Made by a program: the position numbers and the translations under genes. Below the pieces are notes generated by a model, which had not been told where the DNA came from, did not search any database, and saw only the letters and a program-made list of their open reading frames with translations. 64,000 nt of DNA from a phage. Shown here one piece after another: positions 7,773-23,028 of this stretch. Numbering within the stretch: the first letter of the stretch is position 1; each line of letters begins with the position of its first letter. Location of the stretch: assembly GCA_024449565.1 (NCBI GenBank), contig GCA_024449565.1_4810.1. One strand, given 5' to 3'.

Positions 7773-7792
7773 CTATTAGTAACGGAAGGGTA

Positions 7793-8083: not shown

Positions 8084-8190
8084 AATATTCTCCTAGTTAG
8101 TCGGGAGGGTAGCGACCTATTCGCTACCTCATCCCCTCTCGATATAAAACATTATAGTCTTAGTGTACGAAGAAGTAAAGCACTTTTTCG
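8084..8190 (-). promoter_or_regulatory. upstream control region with AGTGTACGAAGAAGTAAAG element
   Basis: 19-bp element at 8162-8180 recurs at 8560-8578 (direct) and 8621-8639 (inverted, 2-3 mismatches); ctcgata(t/c)aaa also shared with the 8494-8560 region. Confidence 0.4.
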
Positions 8191-8493
8191 TTATTCTGCG
8201 ATAAAATATTTATAAGCTTTATCGCCTTCTACGTCGATATACTCGACGATAATTAACGCTTCGCCGCGCGGCGTAACCGTCTCGATAAGGGTAACGGCTT
8301 CGTCGTCGGTCTTCGCGAAGCGGATTGCGCTACGTTCGGCGTACTTAATATCATCGAAGGAAAGGCCGACGAAAGCGACCGCGCGGACCTTAATAATGGT
8401 AGATTCTAGTTCCGCGTTAACGGCAGCGATAAGAGAGCGAACGGTTAAACGGTCTTCGTCGTAAGTAAGGATAGAAGAGATTAAAGTAGTCAT
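8191..8493 (-). CDS. small acidic protein, possible distant paralog (100 aa)
   Basis: Start moved to ATG at 8493 with GGAG RBS (MTTLISSIL...); the longer track ORF ends at 8550. Confidence 0.55.
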   Translation of the reverse strand: MTTLISSILTYDEDRLTVRSLIAAVNAELESTIIKVRAVAFVGLSFDDIKYAERSAIRFAKTDDEAVTLIETVTPRGEALIIVEYIDVEGDKAYKYFIAE

Positions 8494-8718
8494 AATAAAA
8501 CTCCCGATGCTAGTAGAAGGAAGGGCCATCACCCGTCTCGATACAAACAAGTATACGCGAGTGTACGAAGAAGTAAAGAAAAAAGATAAAATAATTTATC
8601 TCATTTTTATCGAAAAAGTGCTTTACTTTTTTCTACACTATATTATAATGTACTCATATCGGGACGGGATGAGTTAACGAATAGGTCGTTAACGCCCGTC
8701 GAGAACTAGGAGTTTAAA
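8494..8718. promoter_or_regulatory. divergent intergenic control region
   Basis: Lies between divergent starts 8493 (minus) and 8719 (plus); contains inverted pair of the AGTGTAC...GTAAAG element and a tattataat -10-like box. Confidence 0.45.
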
Positions 8719-9003
8719 ATGGCTATTCTTAACGTTTCTTCCATCCGTAACGCTATCGTCGAGAACTACGGCGTAAAACAAATTTTATCCGAAGTTTACG
8801 CCGCGAACGTAGACCAAACTATCGAGGCGGGTGGGGTAACGGTCGCCGAGGCTTTTAAACTTTACGCGGCGCTACCGGAATCGGACCGCGAAGCCTTCGA
8901 AGTAAACGTTAACGGATACTTCTTCGAAGCGGTCGAAATCGGTAACATCTTACTCGTTATGGGCGAAGAAGAATTTGATACCTTCTCCCTCGTCGAAGCG
9001 TAA
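8719..9003 (+). CDS. small acidic protein, paralog family member 2 (94 aa)
   Basis: AGGAG RBS; CpG-rich codon usage; homologous to the 7793-8083 product. Confidence 0.6.
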   Translation: MAILNVSSIRNAIVENYGVKQILSEVYAANVDQTIEAGGVTVAEAFKLYAALPESDREAFEVNVNGYFFEAVEIGNILLVMGEEEFDTFSLVEA

Positions 9004-9083
9004 GAGAGGATTTTTAGAGCGTCGTGCGCGGCGCTTTAATAAAATTCTTTCGCGCCTAGCGCCCTAACAAATAGGAGTTCATT

Positions 9084-9710
9084 ATGGTTAGCTTAAATCG
9101 TTTCTCGACTAGCGGCGACGTTATCGCAACTAAGACCGCCGACCTCGTTGCATTTTATAATGCAAATTCAGGTTCGAAGCCGATTAAAAAATTTGCGGAC
9201 CGCCGGACCGCCGAGACTCGCGTAATCGCGCTAATCGAGTCCTTAAACGCGCTCGATGAGCCGTCCAACGAATCGCCAATCCCCGACGCGAAGCCGCGCG
9301 AGGAAGTGTCCAGCGATGTAAAAACGCATAAGGCGCGTGCGGTCGTTAAAAAGGCAGAGCCGACGCAGGAAGAACTCGACGCGATGAGCGATGAAGAGTA
9401 TGAAGCCTTCGTTAAGAGCGGCTTAAACGATAGTGCAAATTGCGTAGTGCAAAATGGAACTCCTTCCCATCGCCGTTCGAATAGCGAAGGTATTGCAAAA
9501 AGTTGGGACAATAAGGAAGTGGCGCAAAAGCGTCTCACCCGTAACGGCGTTATGGTCGAGGGTGTAGGAGAGTTCAAATCGGTCCGCGCAGCTTTCGCCG
9601 CGCTGGGATTACCGGATAGCAAGCACATTCGCTTCCGTATGAAGCTTAAGGAAGCTGGGCGCTTGAACTTCGAGTTCGGCAACAAGTCCTTTACCTTCCA
9701 GATTATCTAA
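9084..9710 (+). CDS. hypothetical protein (208 aa)
   Basis: AGGAG RBS; CpG-rich codon usage; two internal copies of the TAGTGCAAA(T/A) motif. Confidence 0.6.
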   Translation: MVSLNRFSTSGDVIATKTADLVAFYNANSGSKPIKKFADRRTAETRVIALIESLNALDEPSNESPIPDAKPREEVSSDVKTHKARAVVKKAEPTQEELDAMSDEEYEAFVKSGLNDSANCVVQNGTPSHRRSNSEGIAKSWDNKEVAQKRLTRNGVMVEGVGEFKSVRAAFAALGLPDSKHIRFRMKLKEAGRLNFEFGNKSFTFQII

Positions 9711-9760
9711 TCGAATGGCGGCCCTTCGGGGTCGCTTTTCATAGTGCAAATTGGTGGCTT

Positions 9761-10024
9761 ATGAATACGCTTATTCTCATCGCTACGTTGTCCATCGGAA
9801 GTGGTCGCACCTTATCCCTTTATGACCATAGTGCAAATTGCGCCTATCCTACGCGCGTTGCGGCGATAGTTAATAGTGCAAATAAGATGCTATTCGAGAC
9901 TTGCTGGAGGGTCGATAACGAGAAAGGTCGGGTAGTCTTAGGCTATAGTGCAAATCTGCTGGTGGAGTCGTTCGATTGGACGGTTGAAGGTCGTAAATTG
10001 TTACGTAAAGTGACTAAAAGATGA
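9761..10024 (+). CDS. questionable ORF (87 aa) carrying three in-frame motif copies
   Basis: Weak RBS; three in-frame AGT-GCA-AAT (Ser-Ala-Asn) copies of the motif; may be non-coding. Confidence 0.3.
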   Translation: MNTLILIATLSIGSGRTLSLYDHSANCAYPTRVAAIVNSANKMLFETCWRVDNEKGRVVLGYSANLLVESFDWTVEGRKLLRKVTKR

Positions 10025-10085
10025 CTTATAATAATACACTTTCTAACGCGTTTATGGTTACAACCTTCCCCGTCGTATTACCGAT

Positions 10086-10125
10086 GGCCCTAGAAGTGGA
10101 GAAAATGTGTTCTAGGGCCGTTTTA
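10086..10125 (+). terminator. terminator-like hairpin (10-bp perfect stem) between convergent genes
   Basis: ggccctagaa ... ttctagggcc with 14-nt loop, then gtttta; immediately followed by a motif copy. Confidence 0.45.
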
Positions 10126-10138
10126 TAGTGCAAATTGG

Positions 10139-10612
10139 CTAGTGGCGGGAGAATTGCTCTCCTTCTTTGGCCGCCTCTCCAAAATCCTTGTAGAAATCAT
10201 CCATGGAACGGCCCATTTTACTATTGCCATTTTCATCAATCATCGTGATGCCGTAGATGATATTCAGTTCACGAATGGCATTAAGTTTGGCTGATGCCGC
10301 GACTTCTGGATCACGCACAAGCTTCACTAGATTGTGGATGGAACTCTTTACGCTCCACAATTCCTTCAATGGCATCTCTTCCATACGCTTTTTGTAGCGC
10401 ATCTTGTAGTACGGATTGCGCTGAGTGCACAGGATTCGCTGGCCAGTGTAGTTATCGGTCGCAACCTCCATGCCAAATACTAGTGCAAAAGCTGCGCGCA
10501 TGTCATGGCCTTGAATAACAAGGTCAATGAACTCATCGAATAATGCCTGATTATGCTCTGCAAATCGCGGGTCTTCAAAGTCTTCAGGCATTGCTACATA
10601 ATCTTGACTCAT
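10139..10612 (-). CDS. hypothetical acidic protein (157 aa)
   Basis: Start moved to internal ATG at 10612 (MSQDYVAMPEDFED...); two motif copies abut the start on the other strand. Normal (non-island) composition. Confidence 0.5.
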   Translation of the reverse strand: MSQDYVAMPEDFEDPRFAEHNQALFDEFIDLVIQGHDMRAAFALVFGMEVATDNYTGQRILCTQRNPYYKMRYKKRMEEMPLKELWSVKSSIHNLVKLVRDPEVAASAKLNAIRELNIIYGITMIDENGNSKMGRSMDDFYKDFGEAAKEGEQFSRH

Positions 10613-10693
10613 AGTGCAAATCCCATAGTGCAAATTAATAGTGTGAATTATACAATGAATGAACATTATATTCAAGTGCAGATTGATGTTCAA

Positions 10694-11453
10694 ATTGGCT
10701 GTAAACGTACATAAATCATAGTGCTAAATGAATAGCGGACCGTGATGCGTGGTGTACTGTTTGATACGTATAAAAGAAATCCATCCCTTTCGCCGCTTGC
10801 TATGCAAATCAATGACTTAGCCGCTGCTGGCTGGTTGAAGCGTATCATGACGTATCATCCGTATTGCCGCAAGTCTTTGTTTTTACTTATATCTTACGGA
10901 TAATACGTATAAATATAAGTTCAGTATAAGTATGAGGATGTAGAAAAAAATTAATTTAAATTAATTCAAAATGGAGTTAATTGTTTTTTTCAAAGTTGTA
11001 TAAAGTATAGCGGCGACGCGTATCATCCGTATCATCCGTAAGATGTACCATTGAACCCAGTCGCGGCGCACCATAGAAGTGTGTGGAGTGAACTACGGAT
11101 AGGTCCAAATCTTACGTCATTATACGTTTAAATTCTATGCGTAAGGTTAGCCAGCTAACTATATCTCCTTTTTAATTTCAAGCGGCAATCCCAGAGACGG
11201 CGCACCATGTACACAAACACACCACGGTACACGCTCCAATTCCTAGTGATTTCCTCTCCAATCCCACAACACCACAGTACAATAATCTTCCAAAACCGCA
11301 CACATATTCAAGACGCAAAATTCACGTCACAATCCTCACTACCAACGACACTCTAATAGATTTACACAAATCAATCGATTTATCCGATAATAAAGACTCA
11401 CATTCCACAGGCAAATAAAAAGGGCCAATCGGCCCTCTTAACATTAATCATAA
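10694..11453. other. 760-bp non-coding region with iteron-like repeats, AT-rich dyad and strand-skewed CA-rich tract
   Basis: No ORF of 60 aa or more on either strand; CGTATCATCCGTA-type repeats at 10841-10870 and 11018-11040; AT-rich tract 10943-10991; CCCAGnnnCGGCGCACCAT at 11056-11074 and 11189-11207; G-poor tract about 11208-11400. Confidence 0.5.
11408..11437 (-). terminator. intrinsic terminator downstream of the 11454-11906 gene
   Basis: gggcc/ggccc stem with T-run on the minus strand (ctttttatttgcctg). Confidence 0.5.
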
Positions 11454-11906
11454 TTAAAATATAAAATTCTTCACTCCAAGCCTTTTAAATTCTTTCCTTA
11501 ACATCATATTAAACTTCTTCAATTTAGTTTTATTCATCCTTAGCGGATTGTAGGTGAACACCTTTTCTATTACTTCCTCACTCATTTTTGAGCGCATATT
11601 AGTTGCGTAATAGTTCTTGAACGTATAAATAAGGTAATTTGCTTCAAGCTTAAGTTCAATTACTTCCTCCGATTCATCAAGCTCAAGCAATCCTCTTTGC
11701 GTAAGAATATCTCTTAATATATCCTGACATTTCTTGCAATCACCTTTGCCTAAAAGCGAGTCGATGTAATCGCCGCTGACGCGCTCATCACCGAAGTATG
11801 TTGCGCGACCACAAAGGCTTTGCACTTCTCCTTCGTCAAAGTAGTGCGCGCGATGAGCCCACTTCGGTATGGCCCAACCAGCGGCGATAAGCTTATTACC
11901 CATCAC
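11454..11906 (-). CDS. hypothetical protein (150 aa)
   Basis: ORF track; 4-bp overlap with upstream gene. Confidence 0.55.
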   Translation of the reverse strand: MMGNKLIAAGWAIPKWAHRAHYFDEGEVQSLCGRATYFGDERVSGDYIDSLLGKGDCKKCQDILRDILTQRGLLELDESEEVIELKLEANYLIYTFKNYYATNMRSKMSEEVIEKVFTYNPLRMNKTKLKKFNMMLRKEFKRLGVKNFIF

Positions 11907-12502
11907 CCCTCCTTAACGACCCGATAAGCGATGATGTCTGAACCATAGCCAAGCAACGTTCTGTTCCAACCGATGCAGTCAGAAAAGACATCGTTAGCGA
12001 CAATGCCGTCTCTGTATTTGACGTCTACCCGTTTCCCAGGCACCGGATTCTCACCGCCATGCCACGCTGTCCAAGCATCACCATCATTGCTCTTGACAAC
12101 ACGATAAGCAGCAATGTCGCTGCCATTTAACGCTCCTATATGGCCCCAGTGAAGATGGTCAGAAAGTCTTGATAAAACTTTATCAGCCCCATCACGCAGC
12201 TTGTATTCAACAATCTCGCCAGGCACCGGATTCAAGCCACCAAACCACACATTCCACGCTTCTTCCTTCGGCGCATCCTCATCCACGCCTATAGTAGCAA
12301 CGACGTCGTGCAACTGCTTAACAAGCGCCGACGCATCACGGACCTGTGAGCGTAATGCAACCAACTCGCGTTGCGCTTCACTGTATTTCGCTTCCAGCGC
12401 GGCATAGTCCTCATATTCAACATAGCCGCCTTCATCATCCTTTACAACTTCGCAGGTGCAAGCGTGCTGCGTGCAATAATCAACATCGTAACGTTGTATC
12501 AT
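11903..12502 (-). CDS. hypothetical protein with two copies of a GGxNPVPG...DIIAYRVV repeat domain (199 aa)
   Basis: Internal ~55-aa duplication; N-terminal coiled-coil-like segment. Confidence 0.6.
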   Translation of the reverse strand: MIQRYDVDYCTQHACTCEVVKDDEGGYVEYEDYAALEAKYSEAQRELVALRSQVRDASALVKQLHDVVATIGVDEDAPKEEAWNVWFGGLNPVPGEIVEYKLRDGADKVLSRLSDHLHWGHIGALNGSDIAAYRVVKSNDGDAWTAWHGGENPVPGKRVDVKYRDGIVANDVFSDCIGWNRTLLGYGSDIIAYRVVKEG

Positions 12503-12993
12503 TTTAACTTCTCCAAAATTCCAATAGCGATTTGCGTCTGTTTCTCAAGCGCAAGACGCAGTATGTCAATTTGCAAGTCACGATGGGCCAGTTCAGCGGC
12601 GATGTCAGACTTGCTGTAAAGTCCTTCATGAGTCATGGCATAGATGTGGCGTGTATAATAGCCGCCCTCGTCGAGTTGCTCGATGTCACGTTGCCCGACT
12701 GCGTATTGGTCATCGGTCGATGGCGCTTGGTCCTGAATTTTAATTGCCGTCACTTCCTTTAATGAATCGCGTGATGCTGGCCTGTTCTCTTCGAACATCT
12801 TTCCATCACCAATTTGCTTGCACCAAAGCGAATCGCCGATTGCGTATCCCCACTGGCCGCAACAATCGTTCCATGCAGGCTTCCCCTCATACGCCCAGAT
12901 GGTTCCGTTAGAGTCACGTGCAACGAATTTTGCACGAGCGTCTATTTCGTATTCTTTGCCTTCAAAATTGATGCGTTGCGTTTTGTTAGTCAT
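12499..12993 (-). CDS. hypothetical protein (164 aa)
   Basis: ORF track; 4-bp overlaps with both neighbours. Confidence 0.55.
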   Translation of the reverse strand: MTNKTQRINFEGKEYEIDARAKFVARDSNGTIWAYEGKPAWNDCCGQWGYAIGDSLWCKQIGDGKMFEENRPASRDSLKEVTAIKIQDQAPSTDDQYAVGQRDIEQLDEGGYYTRHIYAMTHEGLYSKSDIAAELAHRDLQIDILRLALEKQTQIAIGILEKLK

Positions 12994-13322
12994 GATGCAT
13001 CCTTAGTTGGATAGAATTTAGGGTTTTTCTTATAGAACGCCTTGAGCCATGCCTTTGCTTCGGCAATGCTGCTGAACTCTTCCTTGGAGAGTCCGGTGCG
13101 GTCCTCGCCTGCGACCTTGAAATGGATGCGCACCTTGAGCCGAAGGTTGGTTGCTCTCGCGTAGTGGCCTTCATAGCCGTCATGATTAAGACTTACTATC
13201 GCGGCGAGCATCTCGCAGTCTTCTTTATCGGGATTGCCGCTGTAACAAATCGGCCAGCCGCGACGTTGGAATGACCTGTATTGGCCTGTCGGCTCAGGGT
13301 CCACGTACCATTTCAATTTCAT
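12990..13322 (-). CDS. hypothetical protein (110 aa)
   Basis: ORF track; 4-bp overlaps. Confidence 0.55.
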   Translation of the reverse strand: MKLKWYVDPEPTGQYRSFQRRGWPICYSGNPDKEDCEMLAAIVSLNHDGYEGHYARATNLRLKVRIHFKVAGEDRTGLSKEEFSSIAEAKAWLKAFYKKNPKFYPTKDAS

Positions 13323-13642
13323 TCAAATTTCTCCGTCTCTTTAATGCACTGTAATACCTCTTCGATGCCCACTTCAACTTGCACATCGCTTTGACGCATC
13401 TCATCGATGAATTCATCTTCACAGCGTATCGGGTTATGCATCGTTGATATTTCAAACACCTCAACGTGACTGACCAGCGGCAAAAGGTGCTTCCTTACTA
13501 ATTTGATTAAAACGTCGTGCGAGTCCTTGTCTTTTATTTCTGATTCAATATTATTTTCTTCACAGAAAAGTGACACTGTGTCACCATCCATGAATCCGAA
13601 CTTAGATGCAAGCGATTGCGCGCGCAAGTTAAGAGTTTTCAT
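13319..13642 (-). CDS. hypothetical acidic protein (107 aa)
   Basis: ORF track; 4-bp overlaps. Confidence 0.55.
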   Translation of the reverse strand: MKTLNLRAQSLASKFGFMDGDTVSLFCEENNIESEIKDKDSHDVLIKLVRKHLLPLVSHVEVFEISTMHNPIRCEDEFIDEMRQSDVQVEVGIEEVLQCIKETEKFE

Positions 13643-13980
13643 TTGACCTTCTCCAATTGGAATCTTGTTTCTGGAAAGCCTGCGACAAACATGTCACGGC
13701 CCTCGACATCACGCTTCACGAACCAACGCATTCCGCTTACTACCGTGAAGACAATTTGCCTTCCATCAATAATAAGTCCTTTTGCTTCATAAAGCAAATA
13801 GGTCTGACCGACTTTGAAGCTGGACAGCTCTTTGCTTGCGCTGGTGCACTTGAGCCGCCACTGGGTGAGATTGGATTCGCTCGCCTCGATGTCAACAACC
13901 TTACCGCGCAGCGGCGATGTGCGCTGAAGTTCGGCCATTTGTTCATCAAATGTCAGCTCACGGCCTTCTTGCTCTTCCAT
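13639..13980 (-). CDS. hypothetical protein (113 aa)
   Basis: ORF track; overlapping neighbours. Confidence 0.55.
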   Translation of the reverse strand: MEEQEGRELTFDEQMAELQRTSPLRGKVVDIEASESNLTQWRLKCTSASKELSSFKVGQTYLLYEAKGLIIDGRQIVFTVVSGMRWFVKRDVEGRDMFVAGFPETRFQLEKVK

Positions 13981-14480
13981 TATTCCTCCACGACGCGATA
14001 AGCAATGATGTCATACCCCGATTCTTTATGACTCCAACGGCATTTTTCGGATTCTGAAGGAAAAATCGTCTTTGTGCCTTGCCTTATTGCCACGCGGACT
14101 AATTTACCAGGCACAGGATTGCAGCCGCCAGCCCATTCAATCCAGCCGTCACTCGCCATCGGTTTATCCTTCAAGCACTCATGCTTCTCACCGATGTGGG
14201 CGACAGGTTGACGGCTTCCGTGATAGAATGCAAGCGCAACATCATGGCTTGGGTGAGTATTAGAAAGGCAAATGTCATCACACCAAAGCTCCATGGTGCG
14301 CGACTTAAGGGTCATGATATTGATATACCACTCGATGGTGTAGTGGTCATTAAGGTTGCCAACGATATAGAAGTTGCGACAAAACACCTTATCGCTATCT
14401 GACTTCTCGCGACGATAGCTTTTGATTGCGCCTGCCTTTACGGCCATTTCCAGTACTGCTTCGAGTTGTTCGATTTTCAT
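13980..14480 (-). CDS. hypothetical protein with one C-terminal GGxNPVPG...DIIAYRVV repeat domain (166 aa)
   Basis: C-terminal 55 aa match the repeat in 11903-12502. Confidence 0.55.
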   Translation of the reverse strand: MKIEQLEAVLEMAVKAGAIKSYRREKSDSDKVFCRNFYIVGNLNDHYTIEWYINIMTLKSRTMELWCDDICLSNTHPSHDVALAFYHGSRQPVAHIGEKHECLKDKPMASDGWIEWAGGCNPVPGKLVRVAIRQGTKTIFPSESEKCRWSHKESGYDIIAYRVVEE

Positions 14481-14713
14481 TTCTTTACTCCGAGTTCAAT
14501 TTGATAGCCGATTAACAATTCATTTTCGCCGATGGTAAATGCATCGACTGGCTGCGACATCACCGCTTTTAAATATACCTTCTTGCGCCGCTTTGCCTTG
14601 TACAAACAACGGTCGCCGCTGCGGTTGTAAATATTAAGCCAGGTGCGTTTACTAATCTTATGAGGCACATGCGGCTTGATGAATAATAAACGGGCTTTAA
14701 GATTTGATGTCAT
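14477..14713 (-). CDS. hypothetical basic protein (78 aa)
   Basis: ORF track; 4-bp overlap with downstream gene. Confidence 0.45.
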   Translation of the reverse strand: MTSNLKARLLFIKPHVPHKISKRTWLNIYNRSGDRCLYKAKRRKKVYLKAVMSQPVDAFTIGENELLIGYQIELGVKK

Positions 14714-15005
14714 AATATTTCCCTCCAGCCATATTCTCTTTAATTTCTTTTAATGCTGCACGACCTTTCTTTGTCATCACGACTGATGAATATCGGGTGG
14801 GGTCTTTCTCTCCTGGCACTTTCCAGTCAACAAGGCCCAGCCGGAATAAGACAGGAATTGATGGCGCGTTAACGTCGTGAAACAGTGAAGGCCGTTTCTC
14901 ATAAGCCTTCTTGCAGTCGCCGCGCAACATGTATGATGTGCTGTCTTCCATGCGATATAAGGTCTGAATCTGGGCTAGGCTTAATCTCATTGCTGTCTTC
15001 TCCAA
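14697..15005 (-). CDS. hypothetical protein (102 aa)
   Basis: ORF track. Confidence 0.5.
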   Translation of the reverse strand: MEKTAMRLSLAQIQTLYRMEDSTSYMLRGDCKKAYEKRPSLFHDVNAPSIPVLFRLGLVDWKVPGEKDPTRYSSVVMTKKGRAALKEIKENMAGGKYYDIKS

Positions 15006-15172
15006 ACTGCGTGTAATGTTTTCTGGTCGAACTTGGACAACGTTTCACGCTCCGAAGCCTTAAGGAATCGCGTGCCAAAGAACAGCATGCCTTGCGGCGT
15101 TTTAACGAGAGACACGCCTTTGTTACGGTAAAAGCTTACCATTGCTGAAGCGTTATGGACTTCGGTACTCAT
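14987..15172 (-). CDS. hypothetical protein (61 aa)
   Basis: ORF track; short, overlaps neighbour by 19 nt. Confidence 0.4.
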   Translation of the reverse strand: MSTEVHNASAMVSFYRNKGVSLVKTPQGMLFFGTRFLKASERETLSKFDQKTLHAVWRRQQ

Positions 15173-15174
15173 AA

Positions 15175-15477
15175 TTAAATCCCCTTAAAAACAAAGCCGC
15201 TGATAACAGATTGATAGTAGGTCACGCCGCGCACCTCTACAACCTTGCAGCGATGGGCCTGGCCCTTATATTCTATCCACCAGACTTCCATATCAGGCAA
15301 GTTGTTGCGACGCGTCAACCAGCCGTGAAACAGCTTGTATGTTTCGCCGACCTTAAAAGGTTTCAGCGTACCGTAAGAATCAACCTTGAATGCGCAGACA
15401 ACATCTTTGCTGTCTTTGTGTACAGCGTCATGAAATAATCCGCTTCTGCCAAACCTTTCGTCGTAACTCATAATCAT
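15175..15477 (-). CDS. hypothetical protein (100 aa)
   Basis: AGGAGA RBS; preceded by the 29-bp repeat element. Confidence 0.55.
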   Translation of the reverse strand: MIMSYDERFGRSGLFHDAVHKDSKDVVCAFKVDSYGTLKPFKVGETYKLFHGWLTRRNNLPDMEVWWIEYKGQAHRCKVVEVRGVTYYQSVISGFVFKGI

Positions 15478-15516
15478 TCTCCTTTGCTTGATGAACTAAG
15501 TATAATACAGGCAAAT

Positions 15517-15545
15517 AAAAAGGCAAGCATTTAGCTCACCTTTTT
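15517..15545 (-). promoter_or_regulatory. 29-bp repeat element: imperfect terminator hairpin with sigma70-like promoter (copy A)
   Basis: Minus strand reads aaaaaggtgagctaaatgcttgccttttt then tgcctgTATTATACT; identical 28-29 bp at 16770-16797. Confidence 0.45.
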
Positions 15546-15548
15546 GAA

Positions 15549-15809
15549 TTAAATATTCTTCGCCTCTTCGTGAAGTCCGACCGACCTTAGTTTGCGCCGC
15601 AAGTAAGCTTTCTTTTCGCTCTCCCGCCCTTTCGGAGTAACGCGCCAGCGTAATGTGTTCTCCAGATTCTTGCGTCGGTTGTGCTCGTCGAGTAGCTCTA
15701 CCAGTGCCTTTGCGTCGTCGAGTGTTAACACCACGGGCCGCGACCCATTAACGGCTTGTCGAAGCTTCCGCGCGGCAACGGCCAACTTGGTCATCGGACC
15801 CTTGTTCAC
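15549..15809 (-). CDS. hypothetical basic protein (86 aa)
   Basis: ORF track; 4-bp overlap with upstream gene. Confidence 0.5.
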   Translation of the reverse strand: MNKGPMTKLAVAARKLRQAVNGSRPVVLTLDDAKALVELLDEHNRRKNLENTLRWRVTPKGRESEKKAYLRRKLRSVGLHEEAKNI

Positions 15810-16189
15810 GGCAACTCCTTATTCATAGGCGTGATAGACAACACCTTCACTTCAGTGATGTCACGGTTGTATTGGCGCTTGATTTGTAGAATCTGAGATT
15901 GGATGCGCGCAATAAAGTGCGACGTGATTCCTTCCTTAACGTTAATCAAGGCCGCAAGCTGAATTGAGTCGATGTCGCTTCTCAATGTTGTTGGACAGTA
16001 AATCGTACTTGGTGCGCCGTAAGCCCGTTGCACTTCATAAGCAGAAGCTTTGAATGACACAAGAAACATTCTTTCTTCAAGTTGGCTTTCGCTTCTTGGA
16101 TTCTTATCGCAACCAGACATGTGTTTCACAAACTCTTCATGCGGAAGGTGCATGACGTCGTGGCAATAAGGGCAGCGTTTCATTCTCAT
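15806..16189 (-). CDS. hypothetical zinc-finger-like protein (127 aa)
   Basis: N-terminal CPYCHx(n)HxxxxC cluster. Confidence 0.5.
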   Translation of the reverse strand: MRMKRCPYCHDVMHLPHEEFVKHMSGCDKNPRSESQLEERMFLVSFKASAYEVQRAYGAPSTIYCPTTLRSDIDSIQLAALINVKEGITSHFIARIQSQILQIKRQYNRDITEVKVLSITPMNKELP

Positions 16190-16422
16190 TTTGCATACTC
16201 CATAGCATATTGCTGCAGCTTAAATGCAGCCTTGTTCAATTGTTTGTGCCTTGCGTACAAGCGCTCACGTTCTTCTTCAGGGCAATCGGCACGAAGAATA
16301 GTCATGGCAATACTTGACATCGCATTAAGGGTGCGCTGAAAAGCCGACACCATGCGCAGCTCATTACGCTTGTTGAAAGACAACTTACCCAGCGCGACAT
16401 TCATAATTGCACCTCGACACAC
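16186..16422 (-). CDS. hypothetical protein (78 aa)
   Basis: ORF track; 4-bp overlap. Confidence 0.5.
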   Translation of the reverse strand: MCRGAIMNVALGKLSFNKRNELRMVSAFQRTLNAMSSIAMTILRADCPEEERERLYARHKQLNKAAFKLQQYAMEYAK

Positions 16423-16718
16423 GATTCACTAGCCTTGAAGCTCCATCCTTCCAGACCGACTTCGCCGCAACAGCGCACCTTTGCCCATCCAGTCATGAGC
16501 CATTGGTGATACTTTTCGAAGTAGGTCGGCTTTTCTGAATAACAATGTATGAGGCCGTCATTGTCAATGGCCACGTAACGCGTCCAAGGCGCAACGGGTA
16601 CAACTACGTCGCCGTGGTCCTCTGGCCAAGGCTTGATGTGTACAGCTGTGTTCAAGTCTACGTTTAACACGCTTCCTAACCGCTCGTCTTGTTCCTGGTC
16701 GATGCCTAAGTAAATCAT
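16401..16718 (-). CDS. hypothetical protein (105 aa)
   Basis: Start moved to ATG at 16718 with AGGTGA RBS; the longer track ORF ends at 16778. Confidence 0.5.
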   Translation of the reverse strand: MIYLGIDQEQDERLGSVLNVDLNTAVHIKPWPEDHGDVVVPVAPWTRYVAIDNDGLIHCYSEKPTYFEKYHQWLMTGWAKVRCCGEVGLEGWSFKASESCVEVQL

Positions 16719-16769
16719 AATCACCTCACTTGTTCGTCTTGATGAAAAGAGTATAATTATTGATAAAAG

Positions 16770-16797
16770 AAAAGGCAAGCATTTAGCTCACCTTTTT
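16770..16797 (-). promoter_or_regulatory. 29-bp repeat element: terminator hairpin plus promoter (copy B)
   Basis: Same sequence as 15517-15545, followed on the minus strand by AATTATACT -10-like box. Confidence 0.45.
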
Positions 16798-16802
16798 GAT
16801 AT

Positions 16803-17135
16803 TCATTTTACATAGTGGAGTAGGTCAATCTCTATCTGTTCACGTGTCCTTGTTATCTTTGTATCACCCGTCCGGTGAGAGAATCGATAGATGGTCAACT
16901 CTCCGTCATTTCCTCTGTCAAACTTCATGCTGGCTAGTCTACAAGCATATATTGCATTAAGCCTTTCGCCATAAGACAGAAGATTGAAGGTCAATACTGT
17001 GTTGCCCATTCTTGCATTTTCTTTTATGCACTTCTTTAAGAAGTAATAAGAATCAGCAAATGCATTGGCCTTCTTCCACACTTCCTTTATCAATCCACGC
17101 TCATGCGCGGCGAGTATTTGATCACGGGTCATCAC
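16803..17135 (-). CDS. hypothetical protein (110 aa)
   Basis: ORF track; 4-bp overlap. Confidence 0.5.
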   Translation of the reverse strand: MMTRDQILAAHERGLIKEVWKKANAFADSYYFLKKCIKENARMGNTVLTFNLLSYGERLNAIYACRLASMKFDRGNDGELTIYRFSHRTGDTKITRTREQIEIDLLHYVK

Positions 17136-17368
17136 TGCACCTCTGTTATTCCGGTGATACGAACGATTACGGTGTCATCTAAATTGAACTGCTGCCGCGC
17201 GACGCGCTTGATGTCGTCCTTAAGGTCCGCAATCAACTCCCTTGTTAACACTGTACGCTCTGAAACGTCATATTGAACGTCAAAGGTATACTCGCCATAA
17301 AATACCGCGCCATTGGGAAGTTGCACGACATAGAATGCCATATACATGGCGTTAATATAATCTTCCAT
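17132..17368 (-). CDS. hypothetical protein (78 aa)
   Basis: Start moved to internal ATG (MEDYINAMYM...) overlapping upstream stop (TAATG). Confidence 0.5.
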   Translation of the reverse strand: MEDYINAMYMAFYVVQLPNGAVFYGEYTFDVQYDVSERTVLTRELIADLKDDIKRVARQQFNLDDTVIVRITGITEVQ

Positions 17369-17715
17369 TACACATTCTCCACGGGTCGACGGATGAGTTT
17401 GCGTAATCCTTCGGGCCAGACCTTCTTGATGACGGCTTTTGCTGGGCTGGATGAAAGCTTCTTCAGCTTCAATAGGACACACCCTTCATCATCGTTCGGT
17501 TGCACCTGGATAACGACTCGCGCTTGTCGGTCGATGACCATGACATCCCCAACGCGGATGTCTTTCACCAACACGCCCATCTCTTTCGTACCGGATATGC
17601 CAATCACGTGGTCGCAACGGACTCGCGACGGTATCAACGTACCGCCTTCAGCCATCTCACGCACGCGCTTCTTAATCTCTGCGCCATACAACGTTTCATC
17701 TTTAACATGAGCCAT
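17368..17715 (-). CDS. hypothetical protein (115 aa)
   Basis: ORF track. Confidence 0.5.
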   Translation of the reverse strand: MAHVKDETLYGAEIKKRVREMAEGGTLIPSRVRCDHVIGISGTKEMGVLVKDIRVGDVMVIDRQARVVIQVQPNDDEGCVLLKLKKLSSSPAKAVIKKVWPEGLRKLIRRPVENV

Positions 17716-18196
17716 GGTCGAGTACCTTATAAAGAGTGCAAGAAGGACTGCTGAATTCCCTTAATGCATAAGCCACGTTCAAGCTGCCAGGTTCTTTCTT
17801 TGCGTTTGTCACTTCCATGCATTGGCAGCCGTTTATGCTGTATCGTCTTACTACAACAGCATTGAAAATCTGACTGCCGTAATAGACGCAGACGATAACA
17901 TCACCGACTTCTATTTTATCAGCCGGAACAGGCTTAAGGCGCGGCTTTTTATCAACATAAGTCTTGATAGGAACTTGTACGCAACGAGATTGATGGTAAA
18001 TAGGTCTTGTTGCACCCTTGACGTTGCGCTTCAGCAATTCATCAATGGCATAGTCAACATCATCACTTTCAAACTCCTTCATGATGAAGTCTCTTACCCT
18101 TACACGAAGGTTAACATCTGCTTCTGCACGTCTCAATGCGTGTAAAATTTCTTCAGCTTCTTCTTTGTTCAACATTAAAGGGCGATGTATGATCAT
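17702..18196 (-). CDS. hypothetical protein (164 aa)
   Basis: ORF track. Confidence 0.5.
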   Translation of the reverse strand: MIIHRPLMLNKEEAEEILHALRRAEADVNLRVRVRDFIMKEFESDDVDYAIDELLKRNVKGATRPIYHQSRCVQVPIKTYVDKKPRLKPVPADKIEVGDVIVCVYYGSQIFNAVVVRRYSINGCQCMEVTNAKKEPGSLNVAYALREFSSPSCTLYKVLDHGSC

Positions 18197-18198
18197 AA

Positions 18199-18462
18199 TT
18201 AACCTCTGATTTGTGACACAAAACGTTTATAATGTTCTTTGGCCAGGACGCGTGCGCGCTCTTTCGTATGGCCGCTGGCTTCAAGTACGCGGCGAAGCTG
18301 CTTGATTGCGTCTGCCTTGCTGATTTTATTATTGCTAAATTGATATTTATTCATTTCTTCATCTTCTCTCAATTCTGATTCAAAATCCAAACAATCTTCT
18401 TCGCCACTTCTCGTTTCGAGAAATAATTTGCACTTGCCTTTTATCATAAGTTTGTTATTCAT
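18199..18462 (-). CDS. hypothetical protein (87 aa)
   Basis: ORF track; 4-bp overlap with upstream gene. Confidence 0.5.
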   Translation of the reverse strand: MNNKLMIKGKCKLFLETRSGEEDCLDFESELREDEEMNKYQFSNNKISKADAIKQLRRVLEASGHTKERARVLAKEHYKRFVSQIRG

Positions 18463-18680
18463 GCTTCACAAGCCGCCTTAATTTGACGTGGAGTAACGAT
18501 GACCACTTCACCAACCAGTGACTTGTCATCTTCTTTTACCGTATCGATTCGAACGCGATAGTGATTGCGACCGCGCGAATCAGTAAGGTGTTGATCCAGC
18601 TCAAGGATGGTTCCTGCACGCATGTGATGTCCTGATATCCAACGGATACGGTCGCCAGCCTTAAGGGTTTTCTTGCTCAT
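18459..18680 (-). CDS. hypothetical protein (73 aa)
   Basis: Start moved to internal ATG at 18680 (MSKKTLKAGD...); track ORF extends to 18845 with a junk-like N-terminus overlapping the upstream gene. Confidence 0.45.
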   Translation of the reverse strand: MSKKTLKAGDRIRWISGHHMRAGTILELDQHLTDSRGRNHYRVRIDTVKEDDKSLVGEVVIVTPRQIKAACEA

Positions 18681-18687
18681 CTTCAAC

Positions 18688-18966
18688 TCACTTATAATAT
18701 TTAAACATAGCCGCGCAAAAGTCTTGCATGGCATTCTTAATTTGCTTCTTAAACAACGGGTCATGCATCGTTTCAACATTCGTCTTAATCCGAACGTGAC
18801 CGATAACATCAAACGCAGTCGCTGGCATCGGCTCATAGATTTCATGATCGTTCAAGATTATATCTAGCTTTGACTCAGAAATCACGGGATAATTCTTGCC
18901 AGCAGTAAATTGGTCATCAATAGGTGATGTGCACTTGACAAAGAATACTTTGTATGTAGTAATCAT
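18688..18966 (-). CDS. hypothetical protein (92 aa)
   Basis: ORF track. Confidence 0.5.
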   Translation of the reverse strand: MITTYKVFFVKCTSPIDDQFTAGKNYPVISESKLDIILNDHEIYEPMPATAFDVIGHVRIKTNVETMHDPLFKKQIKNAMQDFCAAMFKYYK

Positions 18967-19172
18967 AGAGAATCCTTCGGGCCGCAGTAGCGCCCGTCCA
19001 GGTAGCGGTCATATTGGATTAAAGCGAATGTTTTCAGCGAAAGGTTACGGCGCTTAAACAGATGACCAGTTGCTGGATTCTGCTCGTGCGCCGTTGGATA
19101 AAGGCGTGACAGGTAGTGGATGAGGACTTGCAAAGCCCTACGTTGATTTGTTATTCTCCCCTGTGTATTCAT
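18963..19172 (-). CDS. hypothetical protein (69 aa)
   Basis: ORF track; 4-bp overlap. Confidence 0.45.
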   Translation of the reverse strand: MNTQGRITNQRRALQVLIHYLSRLYPTAHEQNPATGHLFKRRNLSLKTFALIQYDRYLDGRYCGPKDSL

Positions 19173-19362
19173 GGCTGAATCTACCCTCTGTCAATATCCG
19201 GTCATGGATGACTATACCAGTACAGCGCAGGCGGTTGGCATTGCTTCGCGCCTTTGCTGCTTGATGAGGATTGAACAAGCCAAACAAACTAGCCTTAAAA
19301 GCAAACTGGTAATATTTGATTAAGGTACTAAGTGCTAACTCAATCCTGTCTAAATTAATCAT
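19138..19362 (-). CDS. hypothetical protein (74 aa)
   Basis: ORF track; first gene of the minus-strand run. Confidence 0.45.
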   Translation of the reverse strand: MINLDRIELALSTLIKYYQFAFKASLFGLFNPHQAAKARSNANRLRCTGIVIHDRILTEGRFSHEYTGENNKST

Positions 19363-19401
19363 AATATCACCTCGTCAGAAAAGCAAATATTTTGATGATA
19401 A

Positions 19402-20049
19402 TTATCCTGTGGCCTGCATATTGCGTACATACTTCTGCTCTAATGAATAGATGAAGTCGGCGACAGTCAATCCCTTCGTGTGCCATTCATACATGGTGAA
19501 GCCTGTATTCAGGAAATAGCCGCGCACTTTATCCATTGCTTCAGCTTCCTCCATTGAAGCCATCAGCGCGGCGACGTTGTCATAAGAAGGCACAAATCCC
19601 TTCTTGCGTAGCGCATTGCGCAAATCTTTAGTTCTGAATCCAATCTTGCAAGGGTCATCACGACCAGTAGATGATGCAACCTTTGGTAGCGCAAGGAACT
19701 CTTTAAGGAACATTGCAATGTTCAAGTCGCCTGCGTCATCAAGCTTCTGGATTCGGTTGCGACCGCGACCCTTGAATTCACTTGCGCGAGGGTGAGTGCC
19801 AAAACAGTGCGCACCTTCCAGTTTAGGGTCGATGATCATTACATCTTTACCAATGCGCAGCTCTACGTAGTAAAGATAAGACTCATCGACAAGCTTTGTA
19901 CGCTTGCAAGTGATTGAGTCCTTATCATAACCAAAGCCACGCAACACGGTTGAAATCATCCGGTTCATTTCTTCGCCGTGAACATCACTTTCTTTGTTCA
20001 GTTCACCAAGATGTTGAAAGAATTTAGCGATGTTGATTGCTTTATTCAT
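19402..20049 (-). CDS. hypothetical protein (215 aa)
   Basis: ORF track; stop overlaps helicase gene start by 1 nt. Confidence 0.55.
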   Translation of the reverse strand: MNKAINIAKFFQHLGELNKESDVHGEEMNRMISTVLRGFGYDKDSITCKRTKLVDESYLYYVELRIGKDVMIIDPKLEGAHCFGTHPRASEFKGRGRNRIQKLDDAGDLNIAMFLKEFLALPKVASSTGRDDPCKIGFRTKDLRNALRKKGFVPSYDNVAALMASMEEAEAMDKVRGYFLNTGFTMYEWHTKGLTVADFIYSLEQKYVRNMQATG

Positions 20050-21719
20050 CAGAATTCATCCTTATCTCTTCCCAAAGAACGTTTACGTTCAATAACCTTC
20101 TTCAAGAACTCAATATCTTCAGGGTCAGACTCATCGCGGATAAGATACGCTAAGATGGTCATCAAGTCAGAAATGTATTCCCCTGCTTCATTCTTAATCA
20201 GCGGCGTAAAGTAACCGCGCTGGTTGCGATAGGTCGCAGGTTCAAAGCCAAGCTTTGACATGTGCGGCGCAAGGGTACGAGAGAAAGGCGACTTGCCGCA
20301 CTTCGCTCTGAATCCCATAGCGATAGCACCACTGGTAATGTGCCAGCGTCCGCTGTGATGTCGGTCATAAGGCGCGGTGATGACGACTTCAACAAGGTCG
20401 TTGTCAACCATCTCATCACGGATAACGCCTCGCGCACGTTCCATTTCATTCTTGCTGAACTCAGTAAGCATGCGAGATGTTTCACCAACAAACGCGTTAT
20501 AGCCTGCTTCGCCGTGCTTCTCCATCCACGCAGCACACTCAGCCATCAACTGCCAAACGTCTTCTTTCAAAGTAGAAAGGTCAGCTTGGAAGTCTTTCGA
20601 CCAGTTCGGTTGCCCGTCCTTATCAGCGAGTTGGCCAACAAAGATAGGATACACACGACGGTTGCCTGTGTCATCACGTTGCATGCCTGCGTATTCGTTG
20701 CCGTCCATGATAGCAATCCACTGGCGTGGTTTCACCTGCGTATCTTCAAATTTGAAGTCCAGGTCGTCTTCCGTCTTAGTCAGGAATGCTTTCATGTTTT
20801 CGATGTCGGCCTTTTTAAAGCCTGTCATCTCGCCGACGTTCGCGATAATTGAGCGACCCGTAATAGCTCGCAAGAACGGGTTGAAGTTCTGCGCGGCTAA
20901 GTTCAACGGAATCGGTGTTGCGTGGCGGTCGTTCATAATAGCTTCGCAAAGCAGCTTGCTAAAATAACTCTTGCCTGCGTTCTGGCCGCCGATGAGCGCG
21001 ATGGAGATTGGCGCTTGACAGCCAGGGTTGGTCAGGCGGTTGTAGAGCGATAGCCAAAAATACACACCGATTTGTCGGTTTAACTCTGTATCGAACGGTC
21101 GGAATAGCTCGATAAGGTATTTCTCGATGCGCGCAGTACCGTCCCATTCAGGCAGCTTCTTGTAGAAGAAGTCCATCAGGTCGTCACGCTGATAACGCAT
21201 GGCCCATTCCTTATAGGATTGAGCGACCTGACGTGAGTTTGGGTTGGACAGTCCTGCTGCGTCGACAGCGGCAACTATCTCTGTGACTTCTAAGGTACGG
21301 TCAGTGAATGTTTCGCCGCGATGGTCGACTAAGCGCCCACGAAAAGTATCTTTGTGAGGGAATGGAACAACGCCACTTCCCTTATCAAACAACGCGTCGA
21401 AAACCGCATAACGGTTCATGTCACTTGTCCGGTCTGCCTGTAGAACGAAGTCATCTTTGGTCGGCTTGTAGTGAGGGAACTTGATTACCTGAAGTGAGGC
21501 GAGCAAGCGTGCTCTTTCAACCAAGTCTTCTTCACCGTAGCATTCCATGCGCTCTGAATCTTTTTCAACGGCTTTATGTTGAAGGCTGATTTTAGCTCTG
21601 GTGCCTTGCTGCTCTGCTGCCTGCATTTCTTCCGAAACGCCTGCATCTTGAATTTCGTCAAAGATTGCACCAAATTCATCACCTGTATCCTCTGGAAGAT
21701 TGTCATTATTAATTGACAT
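20049..21719 (-). CDS. P-loop NTPase, putative primase-associated replicative helicase (VirE/D5-like)
   Basis: 556 aa; Walker A IALIGGQNAGKS; Walker B-like hhhhDG region; size and context of phage primase/helicase proteins. Confidence 0.6.
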   Translation of the reverse strand: MSINNDNLPEDTGDEFGAIFDEIQDAGVSEEMQAAEQQGTRAKISLQHKAVEKDSERMECYGEEDLVERARLLASLQVIKFPHYKPTKDDFVLQADRTSDMNRYAVFDALFDKGSGVVPFPHKDTFRGRLVDHRGETFTDRTLEVTEIVAAVDAAGLSNPNSRQVAQSYKEWAMRYQRDDLMDFFYKKLPEWDGTARIEKYLIELFRPFDTELNRQIGVYFWLSLYNRLTNPGCQAPISIALIGGQNAGKSYFSKLLCEAIMNDRHATPIPLNLAAQNFNPFLRAITGRSIIANVGEMTGFKKADIENMKAFLTKTEDDLDFKFEDTQVKPRQWIAIMDGNEYAGMQRDDTGNRRVYPIFVGQLADKDGQPNWSKDFQADLSTLKEDVWQLMAECAAWMEKHGEAGYNAFVGETSRMLTEFSKNEMERARGVIRDEMVDNDLVEVVITAPYDRHHSGRWHITSGAIAMGFRAKCGKSPFSRTLAPHMSKLGFEPATYRNQRGYFTPLIKNEAGEYISDLMTILAYLIRDESDPEDIEFLKKVIERKRSLGRDKDEF

Positions 21720-21794
21720 TTAATCCTCCTGATACGGCTTTGTTATATTGTTGCATGGATATATCCTTTCAGGGTGCGGTAAATAAACGCCAGA

Positions 21795-21814
21795 AATCTG
21801 GCGTTGTATATTAA
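21795..21814 (-). terminator. hairpin (aacgccag/ctggcgtt) between minus-strand genes
   Basis: 8-bp perfect stem with 4-nt loop; weak T-run on the minus strand. Confidence 0.3.
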
Positions 21815-21855
21815 TATAGTAAAACTCAATTTAAAGCAATATAACTGGTGAACTA

Positions 21856-22146
21856 TCAGCAAGGAAATTGGTCAGCGTATGCCTTTCTCAATTTGTTTAC
21901 TGATTGAACAGCATGAAGGTATTGGCAATCGGTGAAGATGCGGCGCAAATGATCCATAGAAGACAGGTCATCGTTAGTAACCACCAGAATCTCTTCCGAA
22001 GGGCAGCCAGCTTCTTTGACAATCTCATTAAGATTTTCGCCACTAATTTCTTCAACACGTTTCACCTCATCGATACCGTAAACATCAACGGCAACTTCGA
22101 TGTCGTCATCGCTGATATTTTCACCATAAAGAATTACAATATTCAT
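21856..22146 (-). CDS. hypothetical acidic protein (96 aa)
   Basis: ORF track. Confidence 0.5.
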   Translation of the reverse strand: MNIVILYGENISDDDIEVAVDVYGIDEVKRVEEISGENLNEIVKEAGCPSEEILVVTNDDLSSMDHLRRIFTDCQYLHAVQSVNKLRKAYADQFPC

Positions 22147-22247
22147 TTACTCACCCCTGCCAAATAATATGCCATATCCAATACATATAATAGCCCCAGG
22201 ATGATAACAAGGGAAATGATTAATGTGTATTTCTTTACGGCTTTCAT
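22143..22247 (-). CDS. possible small membrane peptide (34 aa)
   Basis: ATG to TGA overlapping downstream start (ATGA); encodes MKAVKKYTLIISLVIILGLLYVLDMAYYLAGVSK. Below track size cutoff. Confidence 0.3.
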   Translation of the reverse strand: MKAVKKYTLIISLVIILGLLYVLDMAYYLAGVSK

Positions 22248-22265
22248 AAGTATCTATACCTAAAT

Positions 22266-22529
22266 TTACTGTTGAGGATCACCAATGGAGTCTGTCGCAT
22301 CCCATTCAACGCGTGCTGTGCGTTCTGCTGGTGGGCAACCTTCGCCAGCTTGAAGCTCAACAACACCTTCATGAGAGCAGCACTGGCACTCTACAAGGTC
22401 GCCATCTTCCCAGGCACCTTCCTCCGCGTTGCGATGCTGCCGCACCTTGATAACATCGCTTGCACAGTTAGGACAAGTCGAGAGATTGCTGGTAACGTTC
22501 CAGGTGAACTCGTTACGGAAAGCACCCAT
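22266..22529 (-). CDS. zinc-ribbon protein (87 aa)
   Basis: Start moved to internal ATG (MGAFRNEF...); CPNC and CQCC pairs. Confidence 0.45.
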   Translation of the reverse strand: MGAFRNEFTWNVTSNLSTCPNCASDVIKVRQHRNAEEGAWEDGDLVECQCCSHEGVVELQAGEGCPPAERTARVEWDATDSIGDPQQ

Positions 22530-22530
22530 G

Positions 22531-22821: not shown

Positions 22822-22823
22822 TT

Positions 22824-22970: not shown

Positions 22971-23028
22971 GAATCACCTCTGCTTCAGTTCATAAAATGA
23001 TTATAGTTGCTATGAAAATAAAAGCAAA

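Follow-up and report, generated by a model that had tools for sequence, protein, structure and literature searches.

Small overlapping genes and a repeated hairpin-promoter cassette in the replication arm of a Wifcevirus genome

What do some 25 small, tightly packed genes do in the distal part of a phage replication arm, and how are they expressed? The question is raised by a stretch of phage DNA of 64,000 nucleotides (nt) (NCBI GenBank assembly GCA_024449565.1, contig GCA_024449565.1_4810.1; hereafter the window), in which positions 11454–20049 hold 25 minus-strand genes for proteins of 61–215 amino acids (aa). A preliminary description had counted about 25 consecutive small minus-strand open reading frames (ORFs) between 11454 and 19362; 24 of them (g1–g24, 61–199 aa) do lie there, and g25 (215 aa; 19402–20049) lies just outside. 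Two copies of a composite cassette cut the block, which therefore comprises three units: A (g25–g16), B (g15–g12) and C (g11–g1). The joint explanation that we favour, with a probability of roughly 55%, is a three-unit arm that would be transcribed by host RNA polymerase in early or middle infection and whose products would mostly bind host or phage macromolecules.

The genes of the block are real, small, soluble and under purifying selection. That they are real follows from ORF coverage, from their overlaps and from ratios of non-synonymous to synonymous divergence (dN/dS) well below 1. At a minimum ORF length of 60 aa, 98% of the region is covered on the sense strand; 500 first-order Markov simulations reach 26% on average and 46% at most, and coverage on the antisense strand is at their chance level. 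Coding density is 97.6%. The statement that most genes are joined by 1- or 4-bp overlaps is correct for 15 of the 24 internal junctions (~62%): the genes overlap by 4 nt at 11 of these (ATGA/GTGA) and by 1 nt at 4 (TAATG/TGATG), the others being three longer overlaps (14–35 nt), three tiny gaps (2–7 nt) and three larger gaps (39, 71 and 84 nt). Shine-Dalgarno-like GGAG/GAGG motifs precede most starts, and start codons were chosen by Shine-Dalgarno support together with the annotations of relatives. Pooled Nei-Gojobori dN/dS, calculated for orthologues from 11 related phages, ranges from 0.005 to 0.31 for all 24 genes with usable pairs (no pair was usable for g2), with dS between 0.07 and 0.96. 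None of the 25 proteins has a membrane-like segment, and g8, g10, g12, g14, g16, g18 and g23 encode basic proteins (isoelectric point (pI) 9–10.8). Plus-strand ORFs inside the block (for example 17273–17710 and 13657–14001) were rejected as antisense artefacts, since substitutions follow the minus-strand frames and antisense ORFs cover no more than chance predicts.

Comparison of the 7.9-kb region with GenBank returned 29 Wifcevirus records, from myophages of Escherichia coli and Shigella, at 80–95% DNA identity; RCIP0319, Bas98-101, FEC19, WFC, WFH, Mansfield, vB_Eco4M-7, ECML-117 and kaset are among them. Across the matched stretch the annotation in these ~29 relatives reads "hypothetical protein" throughout. 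By sequence the window is assigned to Wifcevirus, as a PB1-like E. coli myophage of ~68 kb. Wifceviruses are PB1-like phages with genomes of 66–72 kb (PMC11990801, PMC6753283). A sister lineage is represented by a 72.5-kb Logan contig (SRR26188688; hereafter L014), which has the same architecture of primase, helicase, g25 and small genes.

The division into units rests on the following elements.

16750–16797, minus strand: cassette A, an intrinsic-terminator-like 28-nt hairpin plus T-run (16770–16797) and TTGCCT-N17-TATACT ending at 16750
15499–15545, minus strand: cassette B, the second exact copy of the 28-nt hairpin (15518–15545) and TTGCCT-N16-TATACT
11415–11439, minus strand: closing hairpin GGGCCGATTGGCCC plus T-run, terminator-like (-14.1 kcal/mol), which ends unit C
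11387–11414, minus strand: TTGCCT-N16-TATTAT, after the closing hairpin

The 28-nt sequence AAAAAGGTGAGCTAAATGCTTGCCTTTT occurs in each of the two widest intergenic gaps (15478–15548 and 16719–16802), two exact copies where none is expected. RNA folding gives -13.7 kcal/mol (z -4.6) for hairpin A and -14.7 kcal/mol (z -4.0) for hairpin B, each followed by a U-run. Two pairs of the 28-nt hairpin are G.U pairs, which exist in the minus-strand transcript only. The TTGCCT in the 3' arm of the hairpin doubles as the -35 element of a sigma70-like promoter. Terminators are annotated at both gaps in the WFC and WFH records.

In conservation the cassette far exceeds the surrounding genes. Both copies are present in 11/11 relatives with 0–1 mismatch, and in L014 they carry 0 and 2 mismatches, despite block proteins that are only 35–65% identical. 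The cassette is found exactly twice in each of the 29 Wifcevirus records and nowhere else convincingly in the phage collection. That it might be common to the phages exchanging genes with unit C was rejected since only Wifceviruses carry it. Gene content differs beside it: three different genes directly follow cassette B, depending on the genome, and RCIP0319 has extra genes beside cassette B, as WFC and Bas100 have beside cassette A, other insertions and deletions lying away from the cassettes. Reading the TGCTT of the hairpin as a T4 MotA box was rejected by hand, the distance to the -10 element being 19 nt versus ~12 nt.

The block forms the distal two-thirds of the leftward non-structural (replication-gene) arm. 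The features upstream of it are the following.

Start at 24598, divergent orientation: superfamily 1 (SF1) helicase gene
23029–24111, minus strand: RepB-type primase gene, upstream of the block
21785–21806, minus strand: hairpin ACGCCAGATTTCTGGCGT with T-run, terminator-like (-12.4 kcal/mol, z -4.8), shortly upstream of the VapE-like gene
20049–21719, minus strand: VapE-like helicase-primase gene, upstream of the block

Given the hairpin at 21785–21806, the replication arm itself is also segmented. The best sigma70-like site of the promoter scan, TTGACT-N16-TATACT at 24168–24141, stands ahead of the RepB-type primase gene. At its other side the block had been described as bordering an origin-like region. 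That region holds the predicted terminal-repeat boundary of the genome: the Mansfield record opens at a direct terminal repeat of 3,673 bp predicted by PhageTerm, and its position 1 aligns at window position 10972, which puts the predicted repeat at ~7290–10972 and the end of the block ~480 bp from its boundary.

How conserved is the content of the three units? The concatenated proteins were compared with 50,697 phage records by tblastn. For g12–g25, coverage of at least 80% was obtained in 13 records, at 78–89% identity, and outside the genus only g15 (Queuovirinae, 30–40%) and g25 (Pantoea phages, 28–30%) were matched. For g1–g11 no record reached 80% coverage, single genes matching unrelated coliphages and Klebsiella phages. 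Sixteen of the 25 genes occur in every one of the 11 relatives, and g5, g9, g10, g11 and g19 are polymorphic for presence or absence among phages ~90% identical; a crude pan-genome of 12 genomes contains 11, 9 and 19 families in units A, B and C, respectively. Domain or allele swapping affects g1, g2, g3 and g19. Variability with horizontal exchange is thus seen for g1–g11 and g19, not for most of g12–g25. Judged from these comparisons, unit C is the most variable, its genes and domains being gained, lost and swapped, in part with unrelated coliphages, and units A and B consist mostly of genus-core genes inherited vertically. L014 keeps the order of g25, g24, g23, g22, g21, g20, g18, g17, g15 and, weakly, g14, with g13–g1 all replaced; in the place of g19 it encodes a 178-aa protein together with one that has a Macro domain (PF01661), and a Gp54-like protein (PF25180) is found in it as well (L014 features at 9666–10292 and 12015–12305).

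Unit A is made up of ten genes.

19402..20049, minus strand: g25, 215 aa; start overlaps the VapE-like helicase-primase stop by 1 nt
19138..19362, minus strand: g24, 74 aa, genus-core; 96–100% identity in 11 genomes; dN/dS 0.13
18963..19172, minus strand: g23, 69 aa, genus-core, basic; dN/dS 0.115; L014 65% identity
18688..18966, minus strand: g22, 92 aa, genus-core; dN/dS 0.09; L014 48% identity
18459..18680, minus strand: g21, 73 aa, genus-core; dN/dS 0.146; L014 45% identity
18199..18462, minus strand: g20, 87 aa; only the C-terminal ~51 aa conserved in most relatives
17702..18196, minus strand: g19, 164 aa, mosaic; absent in kaset and WFH
17368..17715, minus strand: g18, 115 aa, genus-core; dN/dS 0.21; L014 47% identity
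17132..17368, minus strand: g17, 78 aa, acidic (pI 4.3), almost invariant; L014 homologue 40% identity
16803..17132, minus strand: g16, 109 aa; in all relatives, divergent (66–100%); dN/dS 0.25

The strongest constraint in the block is on g17, which keeps 99–100% aa identity in 11/11 relatives despite a dS of 0.22. With 104 synonymous versus 2 non-synonymous differences among the 11 phages (dN/dS 0.005), it is constrained far above any neighbouring gene. Two alleles of g19 differ by a swap of the beta-rich domain at the C-terminus; the breakpoint follows KKPRLKP and the tail YKVLDHGSC is conserved. Coverage of g20 is 59% in 10/11 genomes, its C-terminal part being conserved also in L014, and the L014 homologue of g24, a protein that matches no family, is 52% identical. 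For g21 the ATG at 18680 is preferred; a longer ORF of 128 aa overlaps g22, and Mansfield and WFC call the same 222-nt gene.

For the first gene of the unit, g25 (dN/dS 0.035), there are hints at the level of fold. Its model has a transglutaminase-like N-terminal domain, a basic FKGRGR linker and a predicted winged-helix C-terminal domain, and fold similarity of the N-terminal domain to the transglutaminase-like or papain-like cysteine protease fold was found. Papain-like protease activity was rejected, there being no invariant Cys or His in this domain among seven family members, and g25 is not filed as an enzyme because the Cys-His-Asp triad is not conserved. An exhaustive HMMER search returned only 6 clusters. 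Synteny with the helicase extends to Kylevirus and L014, and translational coupling of the two genes is seen in three lineages. Judged by its model and this setting, g25 probably assists replication, most likely as a DNA-binding protein that partners the helicase-primase.

Unit B lies between the two cassettes.

16401..16718, minus strand: g15, 105 aa, phrog_1972; N-terminal module also in g3
16186..16404, minus strand: g14, 72 aa, helical, basic, divergent (64–85%); dN/dS 0.31
15806..16189, minus strand: g13, 127 aa, genus-restricted; N-terminal CxxC...HxxxC zinc-finger-like motif
15549..15809, minus strand: g12, 86 aa, very basic (pI 10.8), genus-core; dN/dS 0.095

The zinc-finger-like proteins previously noted at 15806–16189 are a single gene, g13. 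Its motif, C6-x2-C9-x13-H23-x3-C27, is conserved: among 32 sequences C27 never varies, and conservation is at least 90% at each of the other positions; this is weak evidence because all 32 are at least 70% identical. No zinc-finger profile of Pfam matched, the only hit being DUF7501 at 16.8 bits versus a cut-off of 27 bits, so that g13 is zinc-finger-like as a prediction from motif spacing. Its database relatives form 31 clusters, all on contigs of Wifcevirus size. The g15 protein is 35–40% identical to proteins of Queuovirinae siphophages and is kept in L014. Annotations disagree on the start of g12, which is either a GTG with AGGAG 5 nt upstream or the ATG at 15794, giving 81 aa.

Unit C extends from cassette B to the closing hairpin.

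15175..15477, minus strand: g11, 100 aa, variable (8/11 genomes); 38% identity to phage vB_Eco_AMO_3701M
14987..15172, minus strand: g10, 61 aa, phrog_22503, variable (4/11 genomes); dN/dS 0.03
14697..14990, minus strand: g9, 97 aa, phrog_26489, variable (5/11); ~44% identity to KW1E_UTAR-like phages
14477..14713, minus strand: g8, 78 aa, basic; conserved N-terminal part; ~60% identity to Kagunavirus over 42–54 aa
13980..14480, minus strand: g7, 166 aa; N-domain phrog_21861 plus one C-terminal W..W.GG.NPVPG...DIIAYRVV module
13639..13980, minus strand: g6, 113 aa, core (91–98%); dN/dS 0.12
13319..13642, minus strand: g5, 107 aa, acidic, variable (3/11); 56% identity to siphophage ChristophMerian
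12990..13322, minus strand: g4, 110 aa, phrog_14973; 82% identity to phage BRET
12499..12993, minus strand: g3, 164 aa, mosaic: N-module phrog_1972 (as g15), C-module phrog_34533
11903..12502, minus strand: g2, 199 aa: Cys-rich head, 40-residue helix, two tandem beta modules
11454..11903, minus strand: g1, 149 aa, phrog_2358, last gene of the arm

Modules recur in this unit. The g2 and g7 proteins share a paralogous module of ~60 aa, W..W.GG.NPVPG...DIIAYRVV (expectation value (E) 1e-11), which is present twice in g2 of the window and once in most of its 183 database relatives; the g2 family has three interchangeable kinds of head, and within the module a conserved frame surrounds a hypervariable middle. 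An AlphaFold2 (AF2) model of g2, with a predicted local distance difference test score (pLDDT) of 68, shows a long helix and two small beta units. No fold is named because comparison of the model with PDB folds gave no match (best E 2.6). Two peptides of the g2 orthologue vB_Eco4M-7_16 were detected by mass spectrometry in a phage preparation, and a protein identical to g2 is encoded on a 67,963-bp contig labelled E. coli. The N-domain of g7 is 40–47% identical to rV5-like Phapecoctavirus proteins, and the C-module of g3 has counterparts of ~50% identity in T5-like Klebsiella phages and others. Three alleles of g1 have a common H...C...CxxC motif, and the motif region weakly matches a 70-aa protein of Pbunavirus NH-4 (E 0.006).

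Known families offer little guide to function, as the preliminary description had stated for sequence alone. Pfam gave no match for the 25 proteins apart from the sub-threshold DUF7501 on g13, NCBIfam and PADLOC gave none, and PHROGs returned families of unknown function only. The concatenated query of 2805 aa had 0 matches at E<=1 among PDB sequences, Rfam had 0 matches in 10000–24600, and large-database searches with g25, g2 and g13 found only unnamed phage proteins without Pfam domains. No structural, replication or housekeeping family was matched by any block gene in Pfam, NCBIfam, PADLOC, PHROGs or PDB sequences; an assignment of all ORFs to structural or housekeeping families, which would have spoken against takeover genes, applies to none of them. 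For defence and anti-defence families, no Pfam, NCBIfam or PADLOC profile matched the 25 proteins, no dedicated anti-defence library having been searched. In the literature consulted, no function, transcript map or knockout was found for these genes.

The organization suggests how the arm may work. Leftward transcripts would begin at sigma70-like promoters, of which the one at ~24168, ahead of the RepB-type primase gene, is the first, and would run through the VapE-like helicase-primase gene and then through 25 translationally coupled small genes. The two composite cassettes would terminate and re-start transcription, giving three units, and transcription of the arm would end at the hairpin ~480 bp before the predicted terminal-repeat boundary. 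The consensus promoter matches suggest expression by host RNA polymerase in early or middle infection. Most products would act by binding, in host takeover, counter-defence or control of replication and transcription, rather than as enzymes.

The layout had been called typical of early host-takeover and anti-defence genes, and a host-takeover or anti-defence role is plausible. Small coupled genes of unknown function, a variable unit C, domain swapping and sigma70-like promoters before the units fit that description; the part that does not hold is that of a separate early region, since the block lies downstream of, and co-oriented with, the RepB-primase and VapE-helicase genes, and g25–g12, for the most part genus-core genes passed on vertically, are unlike the usual variable anti-defence island. 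Nearly all of the defence systems tested leave Wifceviruses unaffected, no protective mechanism being known (PMC11990801). Counter-defence genes yet to be discovered are likely to exist somewhere in Wifcevirus genomes, and the Macro-domain gene in the homologous block of L014 provides context.

Several observations weigh against the explanation that we favour. The promoters are consensus matches only, and with 29 promoter-like sites the scan shows no excess over shuffled sequence (24 +/- 6). Genus-core genes with synteny in the sister lineage make up more than half of the total, which fits phage-internal functions at least equally well. The co-orientation downstream of replication genes differs from classic separate early regions, and no block gene resembles a known anti-defence or takeover protein. 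The g25 model gives only fold-level hints and the g2 model no functional match. Finally, the 16 small genes near the corresponding genome end of Pbunavirus NH-4 are on the opposite strand and non-homologous. Because the promoters are consensus matches, the larger part of the block is conserved core and NH-4 is organized differently, the host-takeover reading of the preliminary description is only partly supported.

The conserved fraction bears most directly on a second explanation, which we regard as somewhat unlikely for the block as a whole: that most of it, especially g25–g12, serves the phage's own replication, recombination and regulation, with few unit-C genes directed at the host. Such proteins might be accessory factors of the origin or the helicase, small regulators that bind DNA or RNA, and modifiers of RNA polymerase for middle or late promoters. 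Position directly downstream of the RepB-primase and VapE-helicase genes, with which the block would be co-transcribed, argues for it, as do the coupling of g25 to the helicase in three lineages and its modelled winged-helix domain, the many basic proteins (pI 9–10.8), the zinc-binding-like motifs of g13 and g1, the ten genes that are syntenic in a relative with only 35–65% identity, and the near-invariance of g17. However, there is no homology to replication, recombination or transcription families, g14, g15, g16 and g19 diverge fast or swap domains, and the distal unit is clearly exchangeable cargo.

Exchangeability is central to a third explanation, in which the block is largely dispensable ORFan cargo of a recombination-prone region like the hyperplastic regions of T4-like phages, under weak or niche selection and with no major role in standard infections. 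Such T4-like regions have been described as plastic and largely non-essential (PMC2839356, PMC4122927). The presence/absence polymorphism of g5, g9, g10, g11 and g19, the 19 unit-C families in 12 genomes and the replacements adjoining PeSL-like (promoter-early stem-loop-like) cassettes are consistent with cargo of this kind. It is nonetheless doubtful, since purifying selection acts on every testable gene, in some cases very strongly (dN/dS of 0.005 for g17, 0.03 for g10 and 0.035 for g25), and since 16/25 genes are missing from none of the 11 relatives. A view of the ORFs as chance frames, or as non-coding DNA annotated in error, for which only the absence of database homologues outside phages speaks, has practically no probability and is already refuted by the conservation pattern, given ORF coverage far beyond chance, Shine-Dalgarno sites, dN/dS well below 1, orthologues in at least 29 genomes and on many contigs of Wifcevirus size, and the peptides of the g2 orthologue.

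The favoured explanation of a host-transcribed three-unit arm can be taken further, and we offer the following as a tentative proposal. The 28-nt hairpin may also be a control site, recognized by its sequence, at which a phage factor sets the timing of the three units, and, jointly with this, at least one block protein may be a new type of inhibitor behind the defence insensitivity of Wifceviruses, including that to most restriction-modification systems with no known genome protection. Candidates would be the acidic g17, g2 and g7 with their hypervariable modules, and the swappable g19 and g1.

The non-coding stretch at 10850–11450, after g1, has features of its own. An inverted repeat (10888–10910 / 11025–11047) flanks position 10972 on both sides, and motifs like ACGGATGATACG recur. 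The stretch could be a terminase recognition site rather than a replication origin. Two minus-strand copies of TGGTGCGCCG-N3-CTGGG lie at 11056–11073 and 11190–11207. A CTGGG-core motif has been reported for host-independent promoters of Pbunavirus 14-1 (PMC10914365); here there are two copies only, and the count in a loose search was not above chance.

Within the predicted terminal repeat, a gene on the minus strand at 10139–10612, in the same direction as the block, encodes a 157-aa protein (phrog_4783, no Pfam match) that is annotated by HHpred as the terminase small subunit in Mansfield. The motif ATAGTGCAAAT occurs at least four times (9430, 9828, 10125 and 10611; span 9430–10634), surrounding a 208-aa gene and the small-terminase-like gene, and may be an operator or promoter-associated site. 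Multi-segment inverted repeats at 8110–8251 and 8608–8778 have arms of 22–36 nt with 76–88% complementarity and cover ~120–140 bp per side, also inside the predicted repeat. Near its other end, an 18-nt unit, CTGCCGCGCAGGAGTGTA, is tandemly repeated in ~3.6 copies at 7099–7188.

The block is an ordinary accessory or hyperplastic small-gene region of a phage, already present in public genomes as hypothetical genes. What is new here is the three-unit architecture with a PeSL-like cassette, the partition into core and variable genes, and g17, g2/g7, g19, g1 and g25 as candidates. Replication of Wifceviruses is very fast, development being reported as complete within ~10 min, and ~25 uncharacterized genes are an obvious place to seek factors of defence resistance. 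Unit C, g19 and the g2/g7 module family have the character of exchangeable cargo for host interaction, g17 and g25 that of indispensable core factors. By way of the conserved terminator/promoter cassette, regulation could be dissected and whole modules deleted cleanly.

How does the block compare with known systems? Early or takeover clusters of lytic phages include the T4 early genes, the T5 pre-early genes, the T7 class I genes and the SPO1 host-takeover module. The block shares with them many small, overlapping, same-strand genes of unknown function, host-type promoters and a position adjoining a terminal repeat. It differs in lying outside the predicted repeat and downstream of replication genes, in having no homology to characterized takeover proteins, and in its large genus-core fraction.

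Among published Wifcevirus genomes the same genes occur in the same order, with the same two terminator positions, at the same place, flanked by the VapE-like primase gene and the terminal repeat. The window differs by combining g5, g9, g10, g11, a two-module g2 and a long g20. The Pbunaviruses PB1, 14-1 and NH-4 have a homologous RepB-type primase and VapE-like helicase-primase (44% identity), and Pbunavirus 14-1 depends on the host RNA polymerase, with sigma70-like promoters (PMC10914365). In NH-4, by contrast, only two same-strand genes follow the primase and the g25 family is absent; its small-gene block was rejected as a homologue, the sole link being the weak match to the g1 motif.

The closest parallel is to PeSL cassettes, which border hyperplastic regions of T4-like phages (PMC2839356, PMC4122927). 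Compared by architecture only, both consist of a stem-loop and U-run joined to a sigma70-type promoter, are repeated and highly conserved, and border runs of small ORFan genes that differ among close relatives, with different genes after the same cassette. The phage lineage is another one, and there are two copies per genome here against many in T4-like phages. By this analogy the Wifcevirus cassettes resemble PeSL, and we infer that recombination takes place at them.

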